This document shows, in pieces, positions 1 through 5,949 of a DNA stretch of 5,980 bases; the first letter of the stretch is position 1; each line of letters starts with the position of its first letter. The translations under genes were made by a program, and so were the position numbers. Location of the stretch: contig JAVYLC010000003.1 in assembly GCA_038741355.1 (NCBI GenBank), forward strand, positions 539 through 6,518, in the 5' to 3' direction. This DNA comes from Nitrososphaerota archaeon. Lineage in GTDB: Archaea; Thermoproteota; Nitrososphaeria_A; Caldarchaeales; Calditenuaceae. The notes under the pieces are model-generated. The model worked only from the letters and a program-made list of their open reading frames with translations. It was not told the DNA's origin and ran no database searches.

Positions 1-1028
1 GCTCAGAACGGGCTTGGATATAAAAAGATTTGGAAGACGTTGAGAGAGAATGGGGTTCGGGTAGCTAAGTCGACCGTCGGGTACTACTACTATAAGTTGT
101 TCTCAGAGAGGGTGGGGAAGAGAGGCCCACACCTAGACAGAGCTGTTAGGATTAGACTTTACAGCGAGGTCAAGAGGCTACGGAATAAGGGCTATTCATA
201 CAGCATGATCATAGATGAGGTGAAGGAGAGGTACGGTGTCAGATTAAGTAGGTCAGAGGTCAGTGAGTGGTTAAGAGGAATTCGTAAACCATTAAATGAA
301 ATACGGATACCATCGATTGACTACCTAGAACCGTCACCGGACCTAGCCTATTTTATAGGTGTTGTTGGCGATGGATGCGTAATCAGAAAAAGCACGTACA
401 GCACATGGGGTGGAGGATATAAGGTCGTAGCCTGCGTCAAGGATGGAGAGTTTGCCGAAGAGTTCGCGAGGTGTTTGGGAAGAGTTCTCGGAAGGGAGCC
501 ACCAAAGCCAACGCAAACAAGGGGTGGATTCTTTGGGTACGTGTTGCCTCAAAGACCCTCTACAACCTACTCAAAAAACCAATTAACGTTGATGATACAA
601 GACGTTTCACGGAGCATTGTAGGTATTGTGTGCAGAGCTTTCTACGAGGATTCTTCGACAGTGAAGGCTCCGTAAAAACATGCAGTGCAATCTATTGTTA
701 CAACACAGACATTAAAATTCTCAAATATGTTCAGAGACTTCTAAAACTCTTGGAGATAGAGTCCATAGGACCACGTCTACACGCAAAGAAGGGGACTCCC
801 TCCAAATTATGCGTAGCAAAGAATGATGTATACCACCTCTACGTTGGGGGTGCTAGTAGGCTGAAGTTCTATGAGCACGCCGGATTCACGATACAGAGGA
901 AAAAACAGCGCCTCGGAGAATATCTTACACGTCACGGACTACTTAGGGACAAGCCGCCTAAAACCCCCCTAAATCCTTTCCCTCTACCCACAATCACCGT
1001 GAAAACTAATGAAAAAAGGAGAACATAG
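1..1028 (+). pseudogene. HTH + double-motif LAGLIDADG (I-DmoI-like) endonuclease gene, copy 1. The 5' end lies outside the window and a 1-nt frameshift sits near 535-537.
   Basis: Frame 1 is open from nt 1 (AQNGLGYKKIWKTLRENG...) and aligns with residues from about 55 onward of the 4679-5938 ORF. Motif 1 is LAYFIGVVGDG. Frame 1 reads ...RGGFFGY and then diverges from copy 2. Frame 3 from 537 (VRVASKTLYNLL...FLRGFFDSEGSV...GFTIQRKKQ) resumes the alignment. Codon alignment with copy 2 (ggt ggg ttg ctc gaa gta cgc) shows one base missing in 'ttt gg- gta cgt'. The stop is tag at 1026-1028. Confidence 0.8.
1002..1017 (-). terminator. Possible oligo-T terminator for the aspS/small-ORF transcript
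   Basis: The minus strand reads CCTTTTTTCATTAGTTTTC. The T6 run is at 1012-1017, starting 13 nt past the TAG of the 76-aa ORF. The tract lies inside the last codons of the convergent LAGLIDADG copy 1. Confidence 0.3.
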
Positions 1029-1029
1029 A

Positions 1030-1260
1030 CTACTCCACCTTCTTAAATGGGTCGAGACCTGCGAGGGCTCTGAGCTCTAGGATGCGCCTTTTCAAGTGGT
1101 CAATCTCCTCCACGCTGGGCTCACGAGCCTCTGAACCAGAGACAAGTCTCGCCTTCAGGCCAGCCCACCTATACGCCAGCTCCTCCACATCCTCTTCCGT
1201 CAAATACTTCTCAAATATTCGTTTCGAGATCTCTCTAAACTCCTCAGCCGGATCGCTCAT
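1030..1260 (-). CDS. Small acidic, helical hypothetical protein (76 aa), translationally coupled to aspS
   Basis: Its ATG at 1260-1258 overlaps the aspS stop in an ATGA arrangement (minus strand GTG CCA TGA GCG). The composition is charged and helical (EEFREISKRIFEKYLTEEDVEELAYRW...), unlike the low-complexity antisense ORF 1082-1273. I do not recognise a family. Confidence 0.55.
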   Translation of the reverse strand: MSDPAEEFREISKRIFEKYLTEEDVEELAYRWAGLKARLVSGSEAREPSVEEIDHLKRRILELRALAGLDPFKKVE

Positions 1261-2579
1261 GGCACGAGCCTGAACCTATCCCTCGGGAAGAGTATTACGT
1301 CCCTTATGTTGGTACGCCTTGTGATGACCATTATCAGCCTCTCGAACCCGAGCCCCCAGCCTGCGTGGACAGGCATGCCATAATCATATACCGCCACATG
1401 GTGTTTGAAGCTCTCGGAGTTGAGCCCTTGCTCCTGCAGCCTCTGCCTGAGAAGCACGGGATCTGATATCCTCGTCCCACCTGAAGCCAGTTCGAGCCAC
1501 TGGTACATCAGGTCGAAGGACTCAGATACCTGTGGGTTGCTGGGGTCGGGCTGGATGTAGAAGGGCTTTATGGCGGTTGGGAAGTGGGTGATGAAGTAGA
1601 AACCCGTGTGCCTCTTGGCCAGATATCTCAGTTCTGGGGTCTCCAGATCGCCTCCCCAGCTCTTTGGATGACCAAGCTCCACAAGCTCTCTCAAGGCCTC
1701 GTCATAAGTCATCCGCTTGAAAGGAGTCTTGGGGGGTCGGAGAGAGACGCCGAGGAGCTCGAGCTCCCTCTGCCTCTCCTCTAAGACCCTCTTGAAGACG
1801 TGGGCAACCATCTCCTCAAGCACCCGCATGACACCTTCATAGTTCATGAAGGCAGCCTCTATGTCGACAGAAGTGAACTCGCTGACGTGTCTCCGCGTAT
1901 GCGAGGCCTCAGCCCTGAAGAATGGCCCAATCTCAAAGACTCGTTCAAAGACAGTGACAAGCTCTTCCTTGTAGAGCTGAGGACTCTGGGCAAGATACGC
2001 TTCCTTCCCGAAGTAGTCCACCTTGAAGAGGGCCGCCCCACCCTCAGTCGCGGTGGCTATGATCTTAGGAGTCCTAACCTCCACAAACCCCTGCCCACGG
2101 AGATACTCGCGTATAGCGTCGAAGACCGTGTCAGCTATAAGGAAGATCGCGGTATTCACTGGTTTTCTCAGGTCTAGTATCCTATGGTTAAGACGCGTTG
2201 TCATGGACGCTGAGACTTTGCCGGTCACGTCATAGGGGAGCTTCTCAACCGCCTTGGCAACAACCTCAATCCGCTCACCCCTCACCTCAACACCCATCCT
2301 TGACTGAGGAGCAACGCGCACAGTCCCCCAGACCCTAACAGCCGATTCACGGGTCAAACCATCTAGAGCAGCTAGAAGACCGCTCTCAGCACCTACGCGG
2401 CTAAACACAACTTGGCAGAGACCCGACCTATCCCTCAAAACTATGAAGACCAAAGAGCCGAGGTCGCGTATCTCATGGACCCAGCCCTGAATGACCACAC
2501 GCCGGCCGTCAAGTTCAGGCCTAACCATCCCAGAGCGCACTTGGTCAAAACCGGCCTCGGGCTCCTCATCTCCAGCCAT
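1257..2579 (-). CDS. aspS: Aspartyl-tRNA synthetase, archaeal type (class IIb)
   Basis: An OB-fold N-terminus (VVIQGWVHEIRDLGSLVFIVLRD) is followed by class II signatures: FVEVRTPKIIATATEGGAALF, QSPQLYKE, FRAEASHTRRHVSEF, GMPVHAGWGLGFERLIMV and ILFPRDRFRLVP. It is collinear with the Thermococcus/Pyrococcus AspRS as I recall it. I prefer the ATG at 2579 (MAGDEE...) because the GTG at 2612 abuts the TATA-like box at 2615-2622. Confidence 0.93.
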   Translation of the reverse strand: MAGDEEPEAGFDQVRSGMVRPELDGRRVVIQGWVHEIRDLGSLVFIVLRDRSGLCQVVFSRVGAESGLLAALDGLTRESAVRVWGTVRVAPQSRMGVEVRGERIEVVAKAVEKLPYDVTGKVSASMTTRLNHRILDLRKPVNTAIFLIADTVFDAIREYLRGQGFVEVRTPKIIATATEGGAALFKVDYFGKEAYLAQSPQLYKEELVTVFERVFEIGPFFRAEASHTRRHVSEFTSVDIEAAFMNYEGVMRVLEEMVAHVFKRVLEERQRELELLGVSLRPPKTPFKRMTYDEALRELVELGHPKSWGGDLETPELRYLAKRHTGFYFITHFPTAIKPFYIQPDPSNPQVSESFDLMYQWLELASGGTRISDPVLLRQRLQEQGLNSESFKHHVAVYDYGMPVHAGWGLGFERLIMVITRRTNIRDVILFPRDRFRLVP

Positions 2580-2614
2580 AGAGTTTTTAGACCAAAAAGA
2601 ACATTGATTCACGC

Positions 2615-2622
2615 ATATTTAA
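2615..2622 (-). promoter_or_regulatory. TATA-like box for aspS
   Basis: The minus strand reads CTTAAATATGCG. The TTAAATAT element lies about 36-43 nt upstream of ATG 2579, which would give a short leader. Confidence 0.45.
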
Positions 2623-2674
2623 GTGATAACTTCACATGAGTCATTCATAAACAATCTAACCAAGTATGAGGCCC

Positions 2675-3172
2675 CTAACGCCGCGTAGCCCGCTCAATCC
2701 GTATCGCACGACACTTAAAACTTTTAACCAAATCCACAATCTCGTCCACCGGTAGCTGGAGCTTAGAAGTATCATCCACCGTGACTATCGTCTCCTCGGA
2801 TCCATCAGGAAGCCACACCACATTAATAGTTAGGATCTTAGCAGGGGCAAGAAGCTCAGCCAAAAAGCTATTAAATGCGCGGTGATCCCTAAGCACCCTC
2901 ACAAGTGCCTTTAACCGGCGTGAGAGCTGAAGTGATAGCTCCATAAAGTCCTGAACAGAAGCCTCTACATCTCGGAGGAAGACAAAAATTTTGTTTTTTT
3001 GACGTATCGAGCCGGCGTACTCAGCCTTGGCTAGTAGTGGCAGGTTTAGGTCGATTAACGATGTTAAGACCTCGATGTCCAGCCGCGTAACCTCTCCTCT
3101 CTCTAATTTCCTCTGACAACTCGGGCAAAGAGAGCCACTCCGCAGGTCGAACTCGCATACGGGTATCTTCAG
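2675..3172 (-). CDS. Cys-cluster + NusA-like KH-type putative RNA-binding protein (about 165 aa) with no canonical start codon; CTG is the candidate start
   Basis: One frame is open from 3175 to the stop at 2675. It reads (L)KIPVCEFDLRSGSLCPSCQRKLERGEVTRLDIEVLTSLIDL...IFVFLRDVEASVQDFMELSLQ...FLAELLAPAKILTINVVWLPDGSEETIVTVDD.... The ORF track shows only the C-terminal 89 aa (from ATG 2944) plus an out-of-frame 61-aa ORF. The FLAELLAPAKIL..V segment resembles the F..N.LSPA.V..V segment of NusA-type KH domains. A GGAGG at 3186-3182 lies 9 nt upstream of CTG 3172. Confidence 0.6.
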   Translation of the reverse strand: MKIPVCEFDLRSGSLCPSCQRKLERGEVTRLDIEVLTSLIDLNLPLLAKAEYAGSIRQKNKIFVFLRDVEASVQDFMELSLQLSRRLKALVRVLRDHRAFNSFLAELLAPAKILTINVVWLPDGSEETIVTVDDTSKLQLPVDEIVDLVKSFKCRAIRIERATRR

Positions 3173-3209
3173 TAGTTATCGCCTCCAAGTCTATCATCAG
3201 CCTCATCTG

Positions 3210-3216
3210 TTTTTAA
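3210..3216 (-). promoter_or_regulatory. Possible TATA-like box upstream of the KH-like gene
   Basis: The minus strand reads GGTTAAAAACAG in the 67-nt gap after the alba stop, about 38-44 nt upstream of CTG 3172. Read-through from alba is equally possible because no T-run follows the alba stop. Confidence 0.3.
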
Positions 3217-3239
3217 CCTTCCTTACCCTCGGCGCGCCT

Positions 3240-3512
3240 CTAAGAGGCTATCTTTATCTCGATCGTACTTACGTTCACGTCCCTGTTGTCCTGCCCCTTC
3301 AGCATCTCTGTACCCAGCTTTATCTCCTGCACCTTCAAATCCTTGTAGAACCTGTTCTTCAGTATCTGGACCACATCGACAGCCCTGCTTATTGACCGTC
3401 CCCTCGCCTTCAGTGTCACGTTCTGCCCCTGCTGCAGCGATATCAGACACGCCAAGACGTAGCTCATCGCCGGCTTCTTGCCAACCAATACAGTTACCTC
3501 ATTCGCGGACAT
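3240..3512 (-). CDS. albA: Alba (Sso10b/Sac10b family) DNA/RNA-binding chromatin protein
   Basis: MSANEVTVLVGKKPAMSYVLACLISLQQGQNVTLKARGRSISRAVDVVQILKNRF...VSTIEIKI matches the Sulfolobus Alba pattern (IGKKPVMNYVLA...IKARGRAISKAVD...VSTIEI). The track's start at 3521 is a GTG, and the ATG at 3512 gives a typical 90-aa protein. Confidence 0.93.
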   Translation of the reverse strand: MSANEVTVLVGKKPAMSYVLACLISLQQGQNVTLKARGRSISRAVDVVQILKNRFYKDLKVQEIKLGTEMLKGQDNRDVNVSTIEIKIAS

Positions 3513-3557
3513 TCTTCTCACTCCCTCTGGTTTTTGCAGATGACTTATCCACTAACC

Positions 3558-3567
3558 TAAATAAAAA
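3558..3567 (-). promoter_or_regulatory. TATA-like box for alba, which may also act as the oligo-T terminator of the upstream deacetylase gene
   Basis: The minus strand reads GGTTTTTATTTAGG. It lies 25 nt past the deacetylase TGA (3592-3594) and about 46-55 nt upstream of the alba ATG at 3512. Confidence 0.45.
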
Positions 3568-3591
3568 CCTTCATTACGGGTTCTTTAGGCT

Positions 3592-4362
3592 TCAGAGCAT
3601 GTCGGCGATGGGGTTAACGTGGAGTGCCAGCTGGTTGAGTATTTTGAAGGCCTCAGCATACTTGTAGCCAGCTCTCCTACCTAATATCTCGTCATACTTG
3701 ATGAGGAGTTCAACTATATCAGGAGTGAATTGGGACCTGTGGGCCGACATGGCCTCCTTTTTAACATCTATCAGGTCTGAGATATCGACGTATAGGTTCG
3801 GGTTCTTGGTCCAATAGTAGGCGATGTACTTGGGTGAATGGGGCTCGAGGCCCTTTTCGAGGTCTTCACGGTTGATGTTCGTTAGGTTGCTGAAAAAGAA
3901 GGCCTCGCTGGCTGCGAGTCCAGTTGCTATGTGGTCTGGGTGGGCCTCATAGGGTAGCCATGGATCGACTGTCAAGACGACGTCGGGCCTGTAGCGCCTT
4001 ATCAGGGTTATCAGCTTGTTCCTGAGCTCCAATGAGGGTCTAAGCTCTGAATCCCTATAATCAAGCCAGATGAGTTCTGAGACACCTAGGATCTGGGCCG
4101 CAGCCTGCTGCTCCTTCCTGCGAATACGCGTCAGCTCCTCCCACGATATCGAGGGATCTGTAGTTCCACCACCACCATCAGTCACCGTCACATATATGAC
4201 CCTACACCCACGGTAAGAGAGTCTAGCAACTATGCCGCCGGCGCCTATATCAGTATCATCCGGATGGGGCTGAATGGATAATATCGTTCTGCATTCTTCA
4301 AAAGCCTTCTCAGGCTTCAAACCAATTAACTCCCTGACAACCTCAACCTCTGAAGACTCCAT
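3592..4362 (-). CDS. PIG-L/LmbE-family N-acetylglucosaminyl deacetylase, resembling archaeal diacetylchitobiose deacetylase (Dac)
   Basis: The family signature is QPHPDDTDIGAGG...VIYVTVTDGGGGT...RRKEQQAAAQILGV...DYRDSEL...DPWLPYEAHPDHIATG...YVDISDL...HRSQF. These blocks are collinear with the Pyrococcus/Thermococcus Dac sequence as I recall it. The track's start at 4371 is a TTG, and I prefer ATG 4362 (MESSEVEVV). Confidence 0.85.
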   Translation of the reverse strand: MESSEVEVVRELIGLKPEKAFEECRTILSIQPHPDDTDIGAGGIVARLSYRGCRVIYVTVTDGGGGTTDPSISWEELTRIRRKEQQAAAQILGVSELIWLDYRDSELRPSLELRNKLITLIRRYRPDVVLTVDPWLPYEAHPDHIATGLAASEAFFFSNLTNINREDLEKGLEPHSPKYIAYYWTKNPNLYVDISDLIDVKKEAMSAHRSQFTPDIVELLIKYDEILGRRAGYKYAEAFKILNQLALHVNPIADML

Positions 4363-4390
4363 AGTGTTCAACGATCATAGGGCGTTGGTG

Positions 4391-4397
4391 TTTTTAA
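4391..4397 (-). promoter_or_regulatory. TATA-like box for the deacetylase gene
   Basis: The minus strand reads CTCTTAAAAACACC. Its centre is about 32 nt upstream of ATG 4362, which implies a near-leaderless mRNA. Confidence 0.4.
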
Positions 4398-4408
4398 GAG
4401 TTAAGAGT

Positions 4409-4468
4409 GTGGACCGGCCGGATTCGAGCCGGCGACCTCCCTCACATGTCTTGGGGCTGGGATGAGGT
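4409..4468 (-). tRNA. Orphan tRNA 3' half: anticodon-arm 3' strand, variable loop, T-arm and acceptor 3' strand. A possible anticodon arm plus short intron lies upstream. No 5' acceptor strand or D-arm was found.
   Basis: The minus strand at 4443-4409 reads GAGGG AGGTC GCCGG CTCGAAT CCGGC CGGTCCA C. This has the same 5+5+5+7+5+7+1 geometry as positions 39-73 of the tRNA-Val in this window. One reading upstream is ACCTC AT-CCC-A [GCCCCAAGACATG] T, which is a Gly(CCC)-like loop with a 13-nt intron at 37/38. The complement of the acceptor strand (TGGACCG, or GTGGACC) occurs nowhere between 4445 and 4680. Confidence 0.55.
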
Positions 4469-4652
4469 CTCAACCCCCACCTCTTCAGACCACTCTTCCC
4501 CATAATCCTCCCCCTCAAACCCCTCCTAGGACTCCTCAAGCTAGTAATGGAATTCTTTCCACCCGCTCATTGAATAGTGCCCCAACCGCCGCAGATTTAA
4601 GGCCATGTCAGAAGTCTTAGGCCTAGGTTATTTTCGCCGAGGTGTCTGAGAG

Positions 4653-4660
4653 AATAAGTA
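4653..4660 (+). promoter_or_regulatory. Weak TATA-like box upstream of LAGLIDADG copy 2
   Basis: AATAAGTA is centred about 22 nt upstream of ATG 4679. A GAGGAGG at 4670-4676 could serve as a Shine-Dalgarno-like (SD-like) element. An in-frame taa at 4655-4657 bounds the ORF. Confidence 0.25.
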
Positions 4661-4678
4661 TCGCACGTAGAGGAGGAT

Positions 4679-5938
4679 ATGCTAGTTTTGGGTGGGGAAG
4701 CCTGGGTTTGTTGGGATGGGTCTAGGCCCAGCAATCCCGGAAAGGCCGGGCTGCAGGGGGAGGGTTTGCCCAAGACTCAGCGACGATTAACACCGGAGGA
4801 GAGGTGTAGACTCTTAGAGGCCCTGAGGATTGGAGTGGAGAGGGGATACGGATACGTCAAGATTTGGAGGATGCTGAGGGAGCGTGGGGTGGATGTGTCA
4901 AGGAGGGCCGTTGAGTACTGGTATCGTAAGTGTTTTCCGGAGAAGGTTAGAAGAGGGGGAGAATACCTACCCAGAGAACTACGGATTAAGTTGTATGAGA
5001 AGGTGTTAGAGCTAAGAAAGGCAGGCCTTGGATACAAGAGAGTAAGTAAGAAGATTAAAGAGCTGTATGGTGTCGCGCTGAGCCCTGCAGTGATTGTTGG
5101 ATGGTGCCGGGGAGTACACACACCATACAACGGTATAAGGATCCCCACGATAGACTTCCTAAAACCATCCCCGAAGCTAGCCTACATAATAGGTGTGGTC
5201 GCCGGGGATGGTTGGGCGGTCAAAAATAGGCGGGAAAGTGGAGGCTATAAGGTTGGTGTCAAGGTGAGGGACATGGATTTCGTAGAGGAGTTCGCGAGAT
5301 GCTTGGGGAGGGTCCTTAGGAGAGAGCCGCCGAAGCCAATATCAGTAAAAGGTGGGTTGCTCGAAGTACGCGTCCAGTCAAAGGCATTGTACCAGCTTTT
5401 ACAGAAACCCATAGACTTTGAGAGGATAGGACGGTTCGTAGAGCACTGCGAAGACTGCAAACGAGGCTTTCTGAGAGGGTTCTTTGATAGTGAGGGTTCT
5501 GTGAATAAAAGAGATGGAGGAATTTATTGCGTCAATACAGATGTCAGACTTCTCGAATACGTCCAGAAATTACTAAGAGCTCTAGGTATTGAGACATCGG
5601 GGCCGAGAATCAATATGAGGAAGGGGGCTGCCCATAAAAGGTGGGGAAGAATAATCATGGCGAGAAAAGATGTATACTGCGTTGAAGTCAGGGCGAAGGA
5701 CAGACTGGAATTCTACAGACGCGTAGGGTTCACCATAAAGCGAAAACAACAAAACCTCGAAGAATACCTCAGAAGACGCGGACTACTAGAGGACAAATCA
5801 CCTAACCAACCATCCCCCACTTATCTCTCAACCCCCCTCACACTGATGATGAAATTGGGGCCGGTGGGAATTGAACCCACGACCTCCGCCGTCTCCCCCT
5901 ACGACCACCGCCGTGTGAGGGCGGCGTCATACCGCTAG
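4679..5938 (+). CDS. Free-standing HTH + double-motif LAGLIDADG (I-DmoI-like) endonuclease, copy 2 (419 aa, intact)
   Basis: The N-terminal region of about 150 aa holds two HTH-like repeats (GYGYVKIWRMLRERGVDVSRRAVEYWYRK and GLGYKRVSKKIKELYGVALSPAVIVGWCRG). Motif 1 is KLAYIIGVVAGDG (about 5177-5212) and motif 2 is FLRGFFDSEGSV (about 5468-5503). The acidic residues at the positions expected to be catalytic are present in both motifs. The core (LEVRVQSKALYQLL...VYCVEVRAKDRLEFYRRVGF) resembles I-DmoI as I recall it. The last 27 or so codons (5856-5938) are antisense to tRNA-Val. Confidence 0.85.
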   Translation: MLVLGGEAWVCWDGSRPSNPGKAGLQGEGLPKTQRRLTPEERCRLLEALRIGVERGYGYVKIWRMLRERGVDVSRRAVEYWYRKCFPEKVRRGGEYLPRELRIKLYEKVLELRKAGLGYKRVSKKIKELYGVALSPAVIVGWCRGVHTPYNGIRIPTIDFLKPSPKLAYIIGVVAGDGWAVKNRRESGGYKVGVKVRDMDFVEEFARCLGRVLRREPPKPISVKGGLLEVRVQSKALYQLLQKPIDFERIGRFVEHCEDCKRGFLRGFFDSEGSVNKRDGGIYCVNTDVRLLEYVQKLLRALGIETSGPRINMRKGAAHKRWGRIIMARKDVYCVEVRAKDRLEFYRRVGFTIKRKQQNLEEYLRRRGLLEDKSPNQPSPTYLSTPLTLMMKLGPVGIEPTTSAVSPYDHRRVRAASYR

Positions 5939-5949
5939 ACCACGGCCCC
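5856..5949 (-). tRNA. tRNA-Val (anticodon CAC) with a 22-nt intron at the canonical 37/38 position
   Basis: The minus strand reads GGGGCCG TG GTCT AGCGGTA TGAC G CCGCC CTCACA [CGGCGGTGGTCGTAGGGGGAGA] C GGCGG AGGTC GTGGG TTCAATT CCCAC CGGCCCC A. This folds into a full cloverleaf of 72 nt after intron removal. The anticodon is at 5917-5915. No CCA is encoded. Confidence 0.9.
5892..5913 (-). other. tRNA-Val intron (22 nt)
   Basis: The anticodon 3' strand CGGCGG occurs twice, at the intron 5' end and at the exon 2 start. Removing 5913-5892 restores a 7-nt anticodon loop CTCACAC closed by CCGCC/GGCGG. Confidence 0.75.

Follow-up and report, generated by a model that had tools for sequence, protein, structure and literature searches.

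We analysed a stretch of 5,980 nt from a Nitrososphaerota archaeon of the family Calditenuaceae (positions 539 to 6,518 of contig JAVYLC010000003.1, assembly GCA_038741355.1; hereafter the window), which carries two paralogous genes, termed copy 1 and copy 2, for LAGLIDADG homing endonucleases with an N-terminal helix-turn-helix (HTH) region. Both homing endonuclease genes (HEGs) lie on the plus strand with 3,651 bp between them, as an earlier note on this DNA had recognized (same orientation, 3.65 kb apart), and they enclose a block of minus-strand host genes for a PIG-L/LmbE-family deacetylase, the chromatin protein Alba, a NusA-like protein and aspartyl-tRNA synthetase (AspRS). The 3' end of copy 2 faces the 3' end of a tRNA-Val(CAC) gene. 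All positions refer to the whole window unless a contig is named; the public metagenome-assembled genome (MAG) contig JBHHLC010000039.1 (L001) is a near-exact match, in which the window position equals the L001 position minus 491. The gene content was established from a six-frame listing of open reading frames (ORFs), Pfam, and NCBIfam, and the tRNA genes were identified by ARAGORN and Rfam (Table 1).

The two endonuclease copies and their family

Comparison with related genomes identified the unoccupied form of the locus. PIG-L homologs with 86%, 73%, and 72% identity sit on contigs that carry neither HEG (L084-L091), where the genes are arranged in the order UDP-glucose dehydrogenase, tRNA-Val(CAC), PIG-L, Alba, an 89-aa ORF, AspRS, a 76-aa ORF, nuoA, and nuoH, with the PIG-L gene directly after tRNA-Val. 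An endonuclease gene is absent on both sides of the block in L084-L091. Thus, the occupancy of the same genomic site is polymorphic among relatives, and both copies in the window are insertions, because syntenic close relatives carry neither. By blastn, L001 positions 1555-4847 match L084 with 80% identity, and elsewhere only the tRNA matches; homology to the empty-site relatives resumes at window position 1064, past copy 1. The final ~10 codons of the 76-aa ORF are unlike those of the relatives without copy 1. The tRNA flanks of the window and of the empty site in L084 have diverged too far in sequence for a meaningful comparison (z -0.4 to 2.7).

The two copies share 49.9% of their amino acids (184/369) and 64.5% of their nucleotides, less than the 60% and ~75% previously estimated by eye. 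Copy 2 has 65-69% identity to proteins encoded in other genomes but 50% to copy 1, and the nearest relative of copy 1 is P0014, with 56% identity. Since copy 2 is nearer to these foreign proteins than to copy 1, the two genes are independent insertions and not the products of a local duplication. Copy 1 is cut by the start of the window and has a 1-nt deletion near position 529, which moves its reading frame from frame 1 to frame 3 and yields ORFs 40..675 and 471..1028; the same split is present in L001. Being truncated at the window edge and frameshifted, it is therefore a pseudogene. No tRNA or tRNA relic was found after copy 1 by ARAGORN, a T-arm scan, and further tRNA searches; copy 1 is a decayed family member at a non-tRNA site.

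The AlphaFold2 (AF2) model of copy 2, built with 43 homologs, has a predicted local distance difference test (pLDDT) score of 82.4 and contains two N-terminal three-helix bundles followed by two alpha/beta LAGLIDADG domains, with the LAGLIDADG helices at residues 165-175 and 258-272 and beta sheets after each. Its best match in the PDB is I-DmoI (Foldseek E-value 2.8e-10, template modeling score 0.73 on the target), and LAGLIDADG_3 is matched in 43 of 43 family members; the predicted structure is that of a two-motif single-chain LAGLIDADG protein, consistent with the proposed I-DmoI type of enzyme. The sequences G-D177-G and D-S-E272-G, with an acid at the end of each motif, are invariant in 43 of 43 aligned relatives, and copy 1 keeps both acids (gat 370-372 and gaa 663-665). 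The earlier note had taken this retention as a sign of nuclease activity rather than decay in both copies; the retention is confirmed, but the note missed that copy 1 is a pseudogene.

The N-terminal region matches HTH_21 in 22 and HTH_32 in 16 of the 43 members, and some of them match the Sleeping Beauty transposase HTH (HTH_SB), HTH_33, or Mu Gp27; a PDB sequence search with this region gave spurious matches only. The AF2 model and the Pfam matches together support a transposase-type HTH, in accordance with the two HTH-like repeats noticed before. The likeness to transposases is limited to the HTH part, and no terminal inverted repeats were found at the ends of the insert, which argues against a DDE-type or insertion sequence (IS) transposon. 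Nor does copy 2 have the features of an intron- or intein-encoded gene, as it lies outside the tRNA, on the opposite strand, with no intein or Hint domains in the window. The statement that the genes lie outside rRNA, introns, and inteins is thus correct; however, it overlooked that copy 2 is physically attached to a tRNA-Val gene, and the frameshift of copy 1, the orphan tRNA half, and the antisense tRNA nature of the copy 2 tail (see below) were overlooked as well.

The HTH-LAGLIDADG family has 273 representatives, counted as 50%-identity clusters at E<=1e-30. It occurs in archaea of hot springs and soil and spreads within Nitrososphaerota sensu lato (Caldarchaeales/Aigarchaeota, Geocrenenecus, Wolframiiraptor, and Nitrososphaerales). 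The Caldarchaeales MAG PSS.bin.6 accounts for 17 loci, five copies share one 1.55-Mb contig, and many copies are located at contig ends. Frameshifts affect about 20 of 65 complete loci, among them most of the PSS.bin.6 copies; such a number of decayed copies fits the invade-then-decay cycle of HEGs. The family therefore has the multiple, decaying copies of a selfish mobile gene. This agrees with the multicopy mobile family suspected earlier, for which the empty sites flanking the block provide further evidence, whereas the suggested domestication is contradicted by the invariant acids, the frameshifted loci, and the polymorphic occupancy. Multiple alignment gave no information on the upstream regions of the PSS.bin.6 copies; by pairwise blastn, these copies have 75-93% identity over a stretch that begins ~460 nt before the matched coding region and ends at the tRNA. 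In the upstream region of another copy (L007 3390-3600), several ORFs contain a repeated unit with the translation '...DSHLVD...', suggestive of a short tandem repeat in the DNA of the 5' region of the element.

Association with tRNA genes and rearrangement of tRNA-Val

The family is defined by its tail-to-tail position at the 3' ends of tRNA genes. We fetched 80 loci from GTDB species genomes, 76 of which were usable, and searched them by ARAGORN with introns allowed, measuring the distance to the tRNA from the codon that corresponds to residue 380 of the query, where the conserved '...RRGLL' ends. In 52 of the 76 loci, the end of a convergent, opposite-strand tRNA lies 0-100 nt beyond this codon, in 21 of them at 36-38 nt; in the window, 37 nt separate the last conserved codon of copy 2 from the tRNA end. 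With the density of the remaining tRNAs of these loci as background, the binomial tail is ~8e-120, to be taken as indicative. In an independent set of 80 JGI metagenome loci, a convergent tRNA lies within the same 0-100 nt in 41 of 78, with 38 nt as the commonest distance and 23 anticodons (p ~5e-72, likewise indicative). The HEG-adjacent tRNAs of both sets have ~30 different anticodons and cover nearly every amino acid, and Rfam together with a hidden Markov model of tRNA 3' halves found additional tRNA neighbors that ARAGORN missed.

Three copies with 87-93% identity illustrate the junction: they adjoin tRNA-Ile (L076), tRNA-Ala (L081), and tRNA-Met (L051), and their 75-nt tails differ by 2-4 nt up to tRNA nucleotide 73, past which the tRNAs are unrelated, with different T-arms and acceptor stems. 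Near-identical tails next to such unlike tRNAs therefore point to recent movement between tRNA genes with a precise junction. Separately, ARAGORN called endonuclease-adjacent tRNA-Val(CAC) genes with 84-89-nt insertions (L038 974-1148 and L041 887-1066) and a doubtful endonuclease-adjacent tRNA-Cys with a 390-nt insertion (L080 3078-3554), which may be further rearranged or multi-intron tRNA genes.

The convergent arrangement also affects the annotated proteins. The first ~30 and the last ~37 residues of copy 2 are unconserved, with pLDDT <50, and its C-terminal tail is the antisense strand of the spacer and tRNA-Val. On the tRNA strand, the spacer reads ATTTCATCATC immediately 3' of the tRNA. 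In several homologs, tails such as 'GGIRTLD' and 'PAGFEPATSAV' result from translation of the antisense strand of tRNA T-arms. Between window positions 5866-5873 and L001 positions 6327-6345, the length of a homopolymer run differs by one C, and there is one A/C substitution immediately before the tRNA. This discrepancy shifts the end of the annotated endonuclease ORF, which has 419 aa in the window and 398 aa in L001; because such base differences move the ORF end, the annotated C-termini of the family are unreliable. In practical terms, many annotated C-terminal tails are antisense tRNA read-through, and the repeats break MAG assemblies.

The tRNA-Val gene at the copy 2 insertion is rearranged. 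Its orthologs in L052, which is HEG-adjacent with the same upstream flank, and in the empty sites of L084, L088, and L090 are intron-less and 72-74 nt long (ARAGORN). Positions 1-43 of the window gene are identical to the L052 ortholog and are followed by 22 extra nucleotides, which are missing from the tRNA-Val of L052, L084, L088, and L090, and then by a different 3' part with the T-arm GTGGG-TTCAATT-CCCAC, compared with GCCGG-TTCGAAT-CCGGC in L052. The first 16 nt of the insert match the following tRNA positions 38-53 at 14 of 16 nucleotides, and the window tRNA aligns to L084 in two overlapping pieces because the insert partly duplicates these positions. Lying at the canonical position 37/38, the insert may be interpreted as an intron, and a working tRNA would require its removal.

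A 3' half of the L052 type lies at the far (5') end of the copy 2 insert, on the tRNA strand and directly before PIG-L. This orphan half is composed of a variable loop, the T-arm GCCGG-CTCGAAT-CCGGC, and a slightly decayed 3' strand of the acceptor stem; it has 93% identity over 30 nt to the tRNA-Val 3' ends of L052 and L040 (blastn) and aligns to positions 41-74 alone of the empty-site tRNA-Val (z 5.4). The direct repeat D1 joins it to the working tRNA (4411-4440 and 5858-5887, 73% identical). Hence, ~1.47 kb (4442-5913) separates the 5' part of the native tRNA-Val (nt 1-37/43) from its displaced 3' part, and the working tRNA-Val has acquired a new 3' part. We also considered the orphan as a piece of a complete decayed tRNA, as in a tRNA plus HEG cassette, and rejected this option since positions 41-74 alone align. 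An Rfam search of 4372-4700 up to an E-value of 10 gave no tRNA match.

Orphan 3' halves in tRNA orientation were also identified upstream of the endonuclease gene in L004 (Pro) and in L007 and L010 (Thr). In these three loci, the orphan has the acceptor strand of the adjacent working tRNA and a different T-arm. The L004 orphan, next to tRNA-Pro CGG, is identical to the 3' part of tRNA-Pro CGG from another lineage. In all four loci, the breakpoint falls between the anticodon arm and the variable loop, and no convincing ORFs were found between orphan and HEG in L007 and L004. Another orphan 3' half, in L016, is separated from the endonuclease gene (2690-3831) by an ORF for a host-like CPBP-like membrane protease and a 70-aa IS-transposase-like fragment; it may be unrelated to the HEG insertion, and other mobile DNA may therefore share tRNA-proximal sites.

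The hexamer CTCACA, identical to the tRNA-Val anticodon loop, adjoins the orphan half of the window in inverted form (4441-4446) and occurs in the spacer (5837-5842; repeats D6 and I4, in regions 4435-4446, 5831-5843, and 5913-5924). Hairpin-mediated repair or an inverted anticodon loop could have left it as a trace, or it could be a chance occurrence in the C-rich tail of the family; it is too short to interpret.

Spread at tRNA genes and alternative explanations

We propose that both genes in the window are independent insertions of a selfish family of free-standing HEGs that spreads by insertion at tRNA genes, and we put the probability of this explanation at roughly 75%. It draws on the modeled fold and on the geometry, polymorphism, spread, decay, and tRNA rearrangement observed above. 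For the target site, cleavage, and insertion chemistry, we infer the following route. The nuclease would make a double-strand break in or beside unoccupied tRNA genes. Its HTH region may guide it to some feature that tRNA genes share, because the neighboring tRNAs differ while the junction stays constant. Repair would then copy the HEG from an occupied tRNA locus via short tRNA homology. Imprecise exchange would duplicate tRNA 3' halves and leave junction remnants, which would persist as introns and survive only if spliceable.

Several points weigh against this explanation. The nuclease activity and the break-repair route are predicted from family membership. RNAfold yielded no canonical 3-4-3 bulge-helix-bulge, the motif used in archaeal splicing, for the 22-nt insert and the sequence around it. 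About a third of the loci, including copy 1, are without an adjacent tRNA, and the p-values of the tRNA association overstate its significance as the loci are related, although the tRNA identities differ. The junctions in PSS.bin.6 lie exactly at the tRNA end with no orphan halves, and therefore one mechanism must cover both precise and imprecise outcomes. Finally, repair from another tRNA locus would not readily explain how the recipient retains its own acceptor strand.

A tentative extension, to which we give appreciably less credence, is that the family acts as an integrase-free machine for insertion into tRNA genes, with imprecise repair as a direct source of introns, orphan halves, and eventually split tRNAs. 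If so, the window would be a fresh example, with a 22-nt intron made by junction duplication and a displaced 3' half, and the HTH region would read a shared tRNA feature, e.g., the T-arm box, setting the nuclease at a fixed distance. By what route the tRNA genes of archaea acquire introns, exchange parts, and come to be split is a question of long standing, for which the existing proposals invoke integrating viruses and plasmids or 'intron transposition' without a known enzyme. Here, ~90 loci in Caldarchaeales and Nitrososphaerales hold a single-gene nuclease element tied to tRNA 3' ends, and the copy 2 insertion, with its apparently newly made intron and displaced tRNA half, is directly comparable with empty alleles. 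The family is a testable candidate enzyme with defined substrates for archaeal tRNA gene disruption, and a candidate LAGLIDADG enzyme that may recognize a whole gene class and not one site.

Among the other explanations, collaborative homing is the strongest, although we consider it rather unlikely; it is a variant of the favored explanation and not an exclusive alternative. The nuclease would cut intron-less tRNA genes in the region of the anticodon and variable loop, the small intron would protect the occupied allele, and the intron and the downstream endonuclease gene would be inherited together, as an archaeal tRNA counterpart of F-CphI and the cyanophage psbA intron. The HEG-linked tRNA-Val of the window with an insert at 37/38, next to three empty-site orthologs without it, is in line with this scenario, as are the common breakpoints of the four orphan halves. 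Introns were called in 21 of 46 HEG-adjacent tRNAs and in 5 of 23 other tRNAs of the same loci; however, this association is not significant (odds ratio 3.0, p 0.068), and about half of the HEG-adjacent tRNAs are intron-less, including the orthologous tRNA-Val of L052. Moreover, anticodon arms vary, and near-identical copies at different tRNAs would need very relaxed specificity.

It is improbable that the HEG is mere cargo of a tRNA-integrating element with an SSV- or pNOB8-type tyrosine integrase, in which the repeated 3' halves would be att sites. An integrase of this kind was proposed for a 1.87-kb tRNA-Thr insertion in Caldiarchaeum subterraneum (Sugahara et al., 2012; PMC3293823), and direct repeats of a tRNA 3' part around an insert, such as D1, are the classical integrase signature (PMC3293823). 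A direct repeat of a tRNA part is indeed present at both insert ends in the window, L004, L007, and L010, but was not seen in the PSS.bin.6 copies. The LAGLIDADG gene is the sole family-matched ORF of the 1.47-kb insert, with no recombinase among its products; since the insert encodes nothing besides this protein, an integrase-driven element is unlikely. Copies within one genome are alike only over the ~460-nt upstream part, the coding region, and the stretch up to the tRNA end, and the fixed 37-nt geometry in ~90 loci binds the tRNA to the endonuclease gene itself. Among viral contigs and plasmids, searches yielded no relatives of the family.

Still less probable is a domesticated DNA-binding protein similar to WhiA that would regulate or mark the neighboring tRNA gene. 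WhiA is a single-copy housekeeping regulator of bacteria with a C-terminal HTH that has lost the catalytic acids; it shares the combination of LAGLIDADG and HTH domains with the window family, in which, by contrast, the HTH is N-terminal, the catalytic D and E are invariant, and the gene is multicopy. WhiA ranks 41 among the structural matches of copy 2, three of the 43 members weakly match LAGLIDADG_WhiA, and the tRNA-adjacent position is conserved. However, copy numbers that reach 17 per genome, with many pseudogenes among the copies, and close relatives without the gene at the same tRNA make this role unlikely.

Least probable of all are two locally arisen paralogs serving as recombination substrates around the aspS-alba block, such recombination having been suggested in the earlier note. 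Their orientation and spacing would allow this, but it conflicts with their low identity, a longest common word of 11 nt, the equal or greater similarity of each copy to copies in other genomes, and a block order and orientation colinear with that of genomes without insertions; the two copies would recombine poorly.

Known systems and other features of the window

In full-text literature searches, LAGLIDADG genes fixed at the 3' ends of tRNAs were not found described. The family consists of free-standing homing endonucleases of a known kind, to which a further DNA-binding module and a niche at tRNA genes are added. Several known systems, namely SegB, F-CphI/psbA, HO/PI-SceI, and the archaeal integrative elements, may be regarded as functional analogs, each in a single respect. 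I-DmoI from the 23S rRNA intron of Desulfurococcus mobilis has the same single-chain two-domain fold with an acid at the end of each LAGLIDADG helix; however, its gene lies within an rRNA intron and the enzyme lacks any additional domain, whereas the window family is free-standing, carries ~130 aa of N-terminal HTH bundles, and lies outside the tRNA genes on the opposite strand. Phage T4 SegB is a free-standing GIY-YIG endonuclease encoded in a tRNA cluster, which favors its own inheritance by cleaving tRNA-gene DNA of genomes lacking SegB. It resembles the window family in being a free-standing endonuclease gene among tRNA genes and differs in nuclease fold and phage host, as well as in being single-copy at one site, with no fixed tail-to-tail geometry with many tRNAs. 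F-CphI is a free-standing endonuclease whose target, psbA, is interrupted by a nearby intron, and in HO and PI-SceI a DNA-binding module is joined to a LAGLIDADG enzyme; unlike the family described here, these belong to bacteriophages or yeast and to group I introns or inteins, with no link to tRNA genes.

Elements of the SSV and pNOB8 types insert into tRNA genes, substitute a copy of their own for a part of the tRNA, and leave the displaced partial tRNA as a direct repeat (PMC3293823). These viruses and plasmids measure many kilobases and depend on a tyrosine integrase, in contrast to an insert of ~1.4-1.47 kb that encodes a LAGLIDADG protein only. The insertion described by Sugahara et al. 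(2012) at tRNA-Thr(GGU) of C. subterraneum consists of a 545-bp region 'a' and an 813-bp ORF 'b', and is present in 6-7 tRNA-adjacent copies with a tRNA fragment and a gained intron; ORF 'b' was predicted to be a DNA-binding protein or recombinase, and a pNOB8-type plasmid integrase was invoked (PMC3293823). It shares with the window element the archaeal group, a similar size (region 'a' plus ORF 'b'), the multiple copies, the tRNA fragment, and the gained intron. However, ORF 'b' was reported upstream of the tRNA on the same strand, the tRNA fragment was given as a 5' one, and only tRNA-Thr was seen to be involved. Judged by description, it is probably the same or a related element. Some copies of the family lie between two tRNA genes, as noted at L019 3645-3733 and L037 3634-3707, an arrangement that may be related to the geometry reported in 2012.

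The features of the window are listed in Table 1. Nucleotide similarity of the upstream part of the copy 2 insert to related copies begins at ~4749-4772, and no Rfam family was found in 4442..4678 at the gathering score.

Table 1. Genes and other sequence features of the window with their coordinates, strands, and supporting evidence.
Feature	Position	Strand	Evidence or remark
HEG copy 1 (HTH-LAGLIDADG pseudogene)	1..1028	+	ORF listing; Pfam LAGLIDADG_3 E 1e-10
76-aa conserved ORF, downstream of aspS	1030..1260	-	ORF listing, comparison with relatives
Non-discriminating aspartyl-tRNA synthetase, host gene	1257..2612	-	NCBIfam PRK05159 E 2.7e-159; 440 aa in L001
89-aa NusA-like KH protein, host gene	2675..2944	-	NCBIfam PRK06418 E 2.9e-14; syntenic in L084-L091
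Alba chromatin protein, host gene	3240..3521	-	Pfam Alba E 8.8e-18; NCBIfam AlbA E 6.4e-32
PIG-L/LmbE-family deacetylase, host gene	3592..4371	-	Pfam PIG-L E 9.4e-33
Orphan tRNA-Val 3' half	4410..4441	-	T-arm scan, blastn, alignment
Upstream part of copy 2 insert, non-coding	4442..4678	+	No conservation with relatives
HEG copy 2, intact ORF, 419 aa	4679..5938	+	ORF listing; Pfam LAGLIDADG_3 E 8e-19
Copy 2 conserved core (~aa 30-380)	4766-5818	+	
Copy 2 HTH bundles (aa 39-85, 99-143)	4793-4933 and 4973-5107	+	AF2 model
Copy 2 LAGLIDADG domain 1	~5156-5443	+	D177 = gat 5207-5209
Copy 2 LAGLIDADG domain 2	~5444-5776	+	E272 = gag 5492-5494
Copy 2 read-through tail	5819-5938	+	Unconserved, pLDDT <50
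37-nt spacer, last conserved codon to tRNA 3' end	5819..5855	+	Commonest family spacing 36-38 nt
tRNA-Val(CAC), 94 nt, convergent with copy 2	5856..5949	-	ARAGORN; Rfam tRNA 61.3 bits, E 7e-12
22-nt insert, read as intron at 37/38: CGGCGGTGGTCGTAGGGGGAGA	5892..5913	-	

Two minor observations concern sequences away from the tRNA junction. A 61-aa ORF on the minus strand between the genes for the NusA-like protein and Alba (3021-3206) has no family match and is uncalled in the public contig, and the relatives have a gap of ~300 nt there. At the contig end upstream of copy 1, outside the window (L001 1-130), three close GCTGATGA motifs are accompanied by nearby CTGA motifs, e.g., aGGCTGATGAgggg...ccCTGAc, which resemble the C and D boxes of archaeal C/D-box small RNAs.

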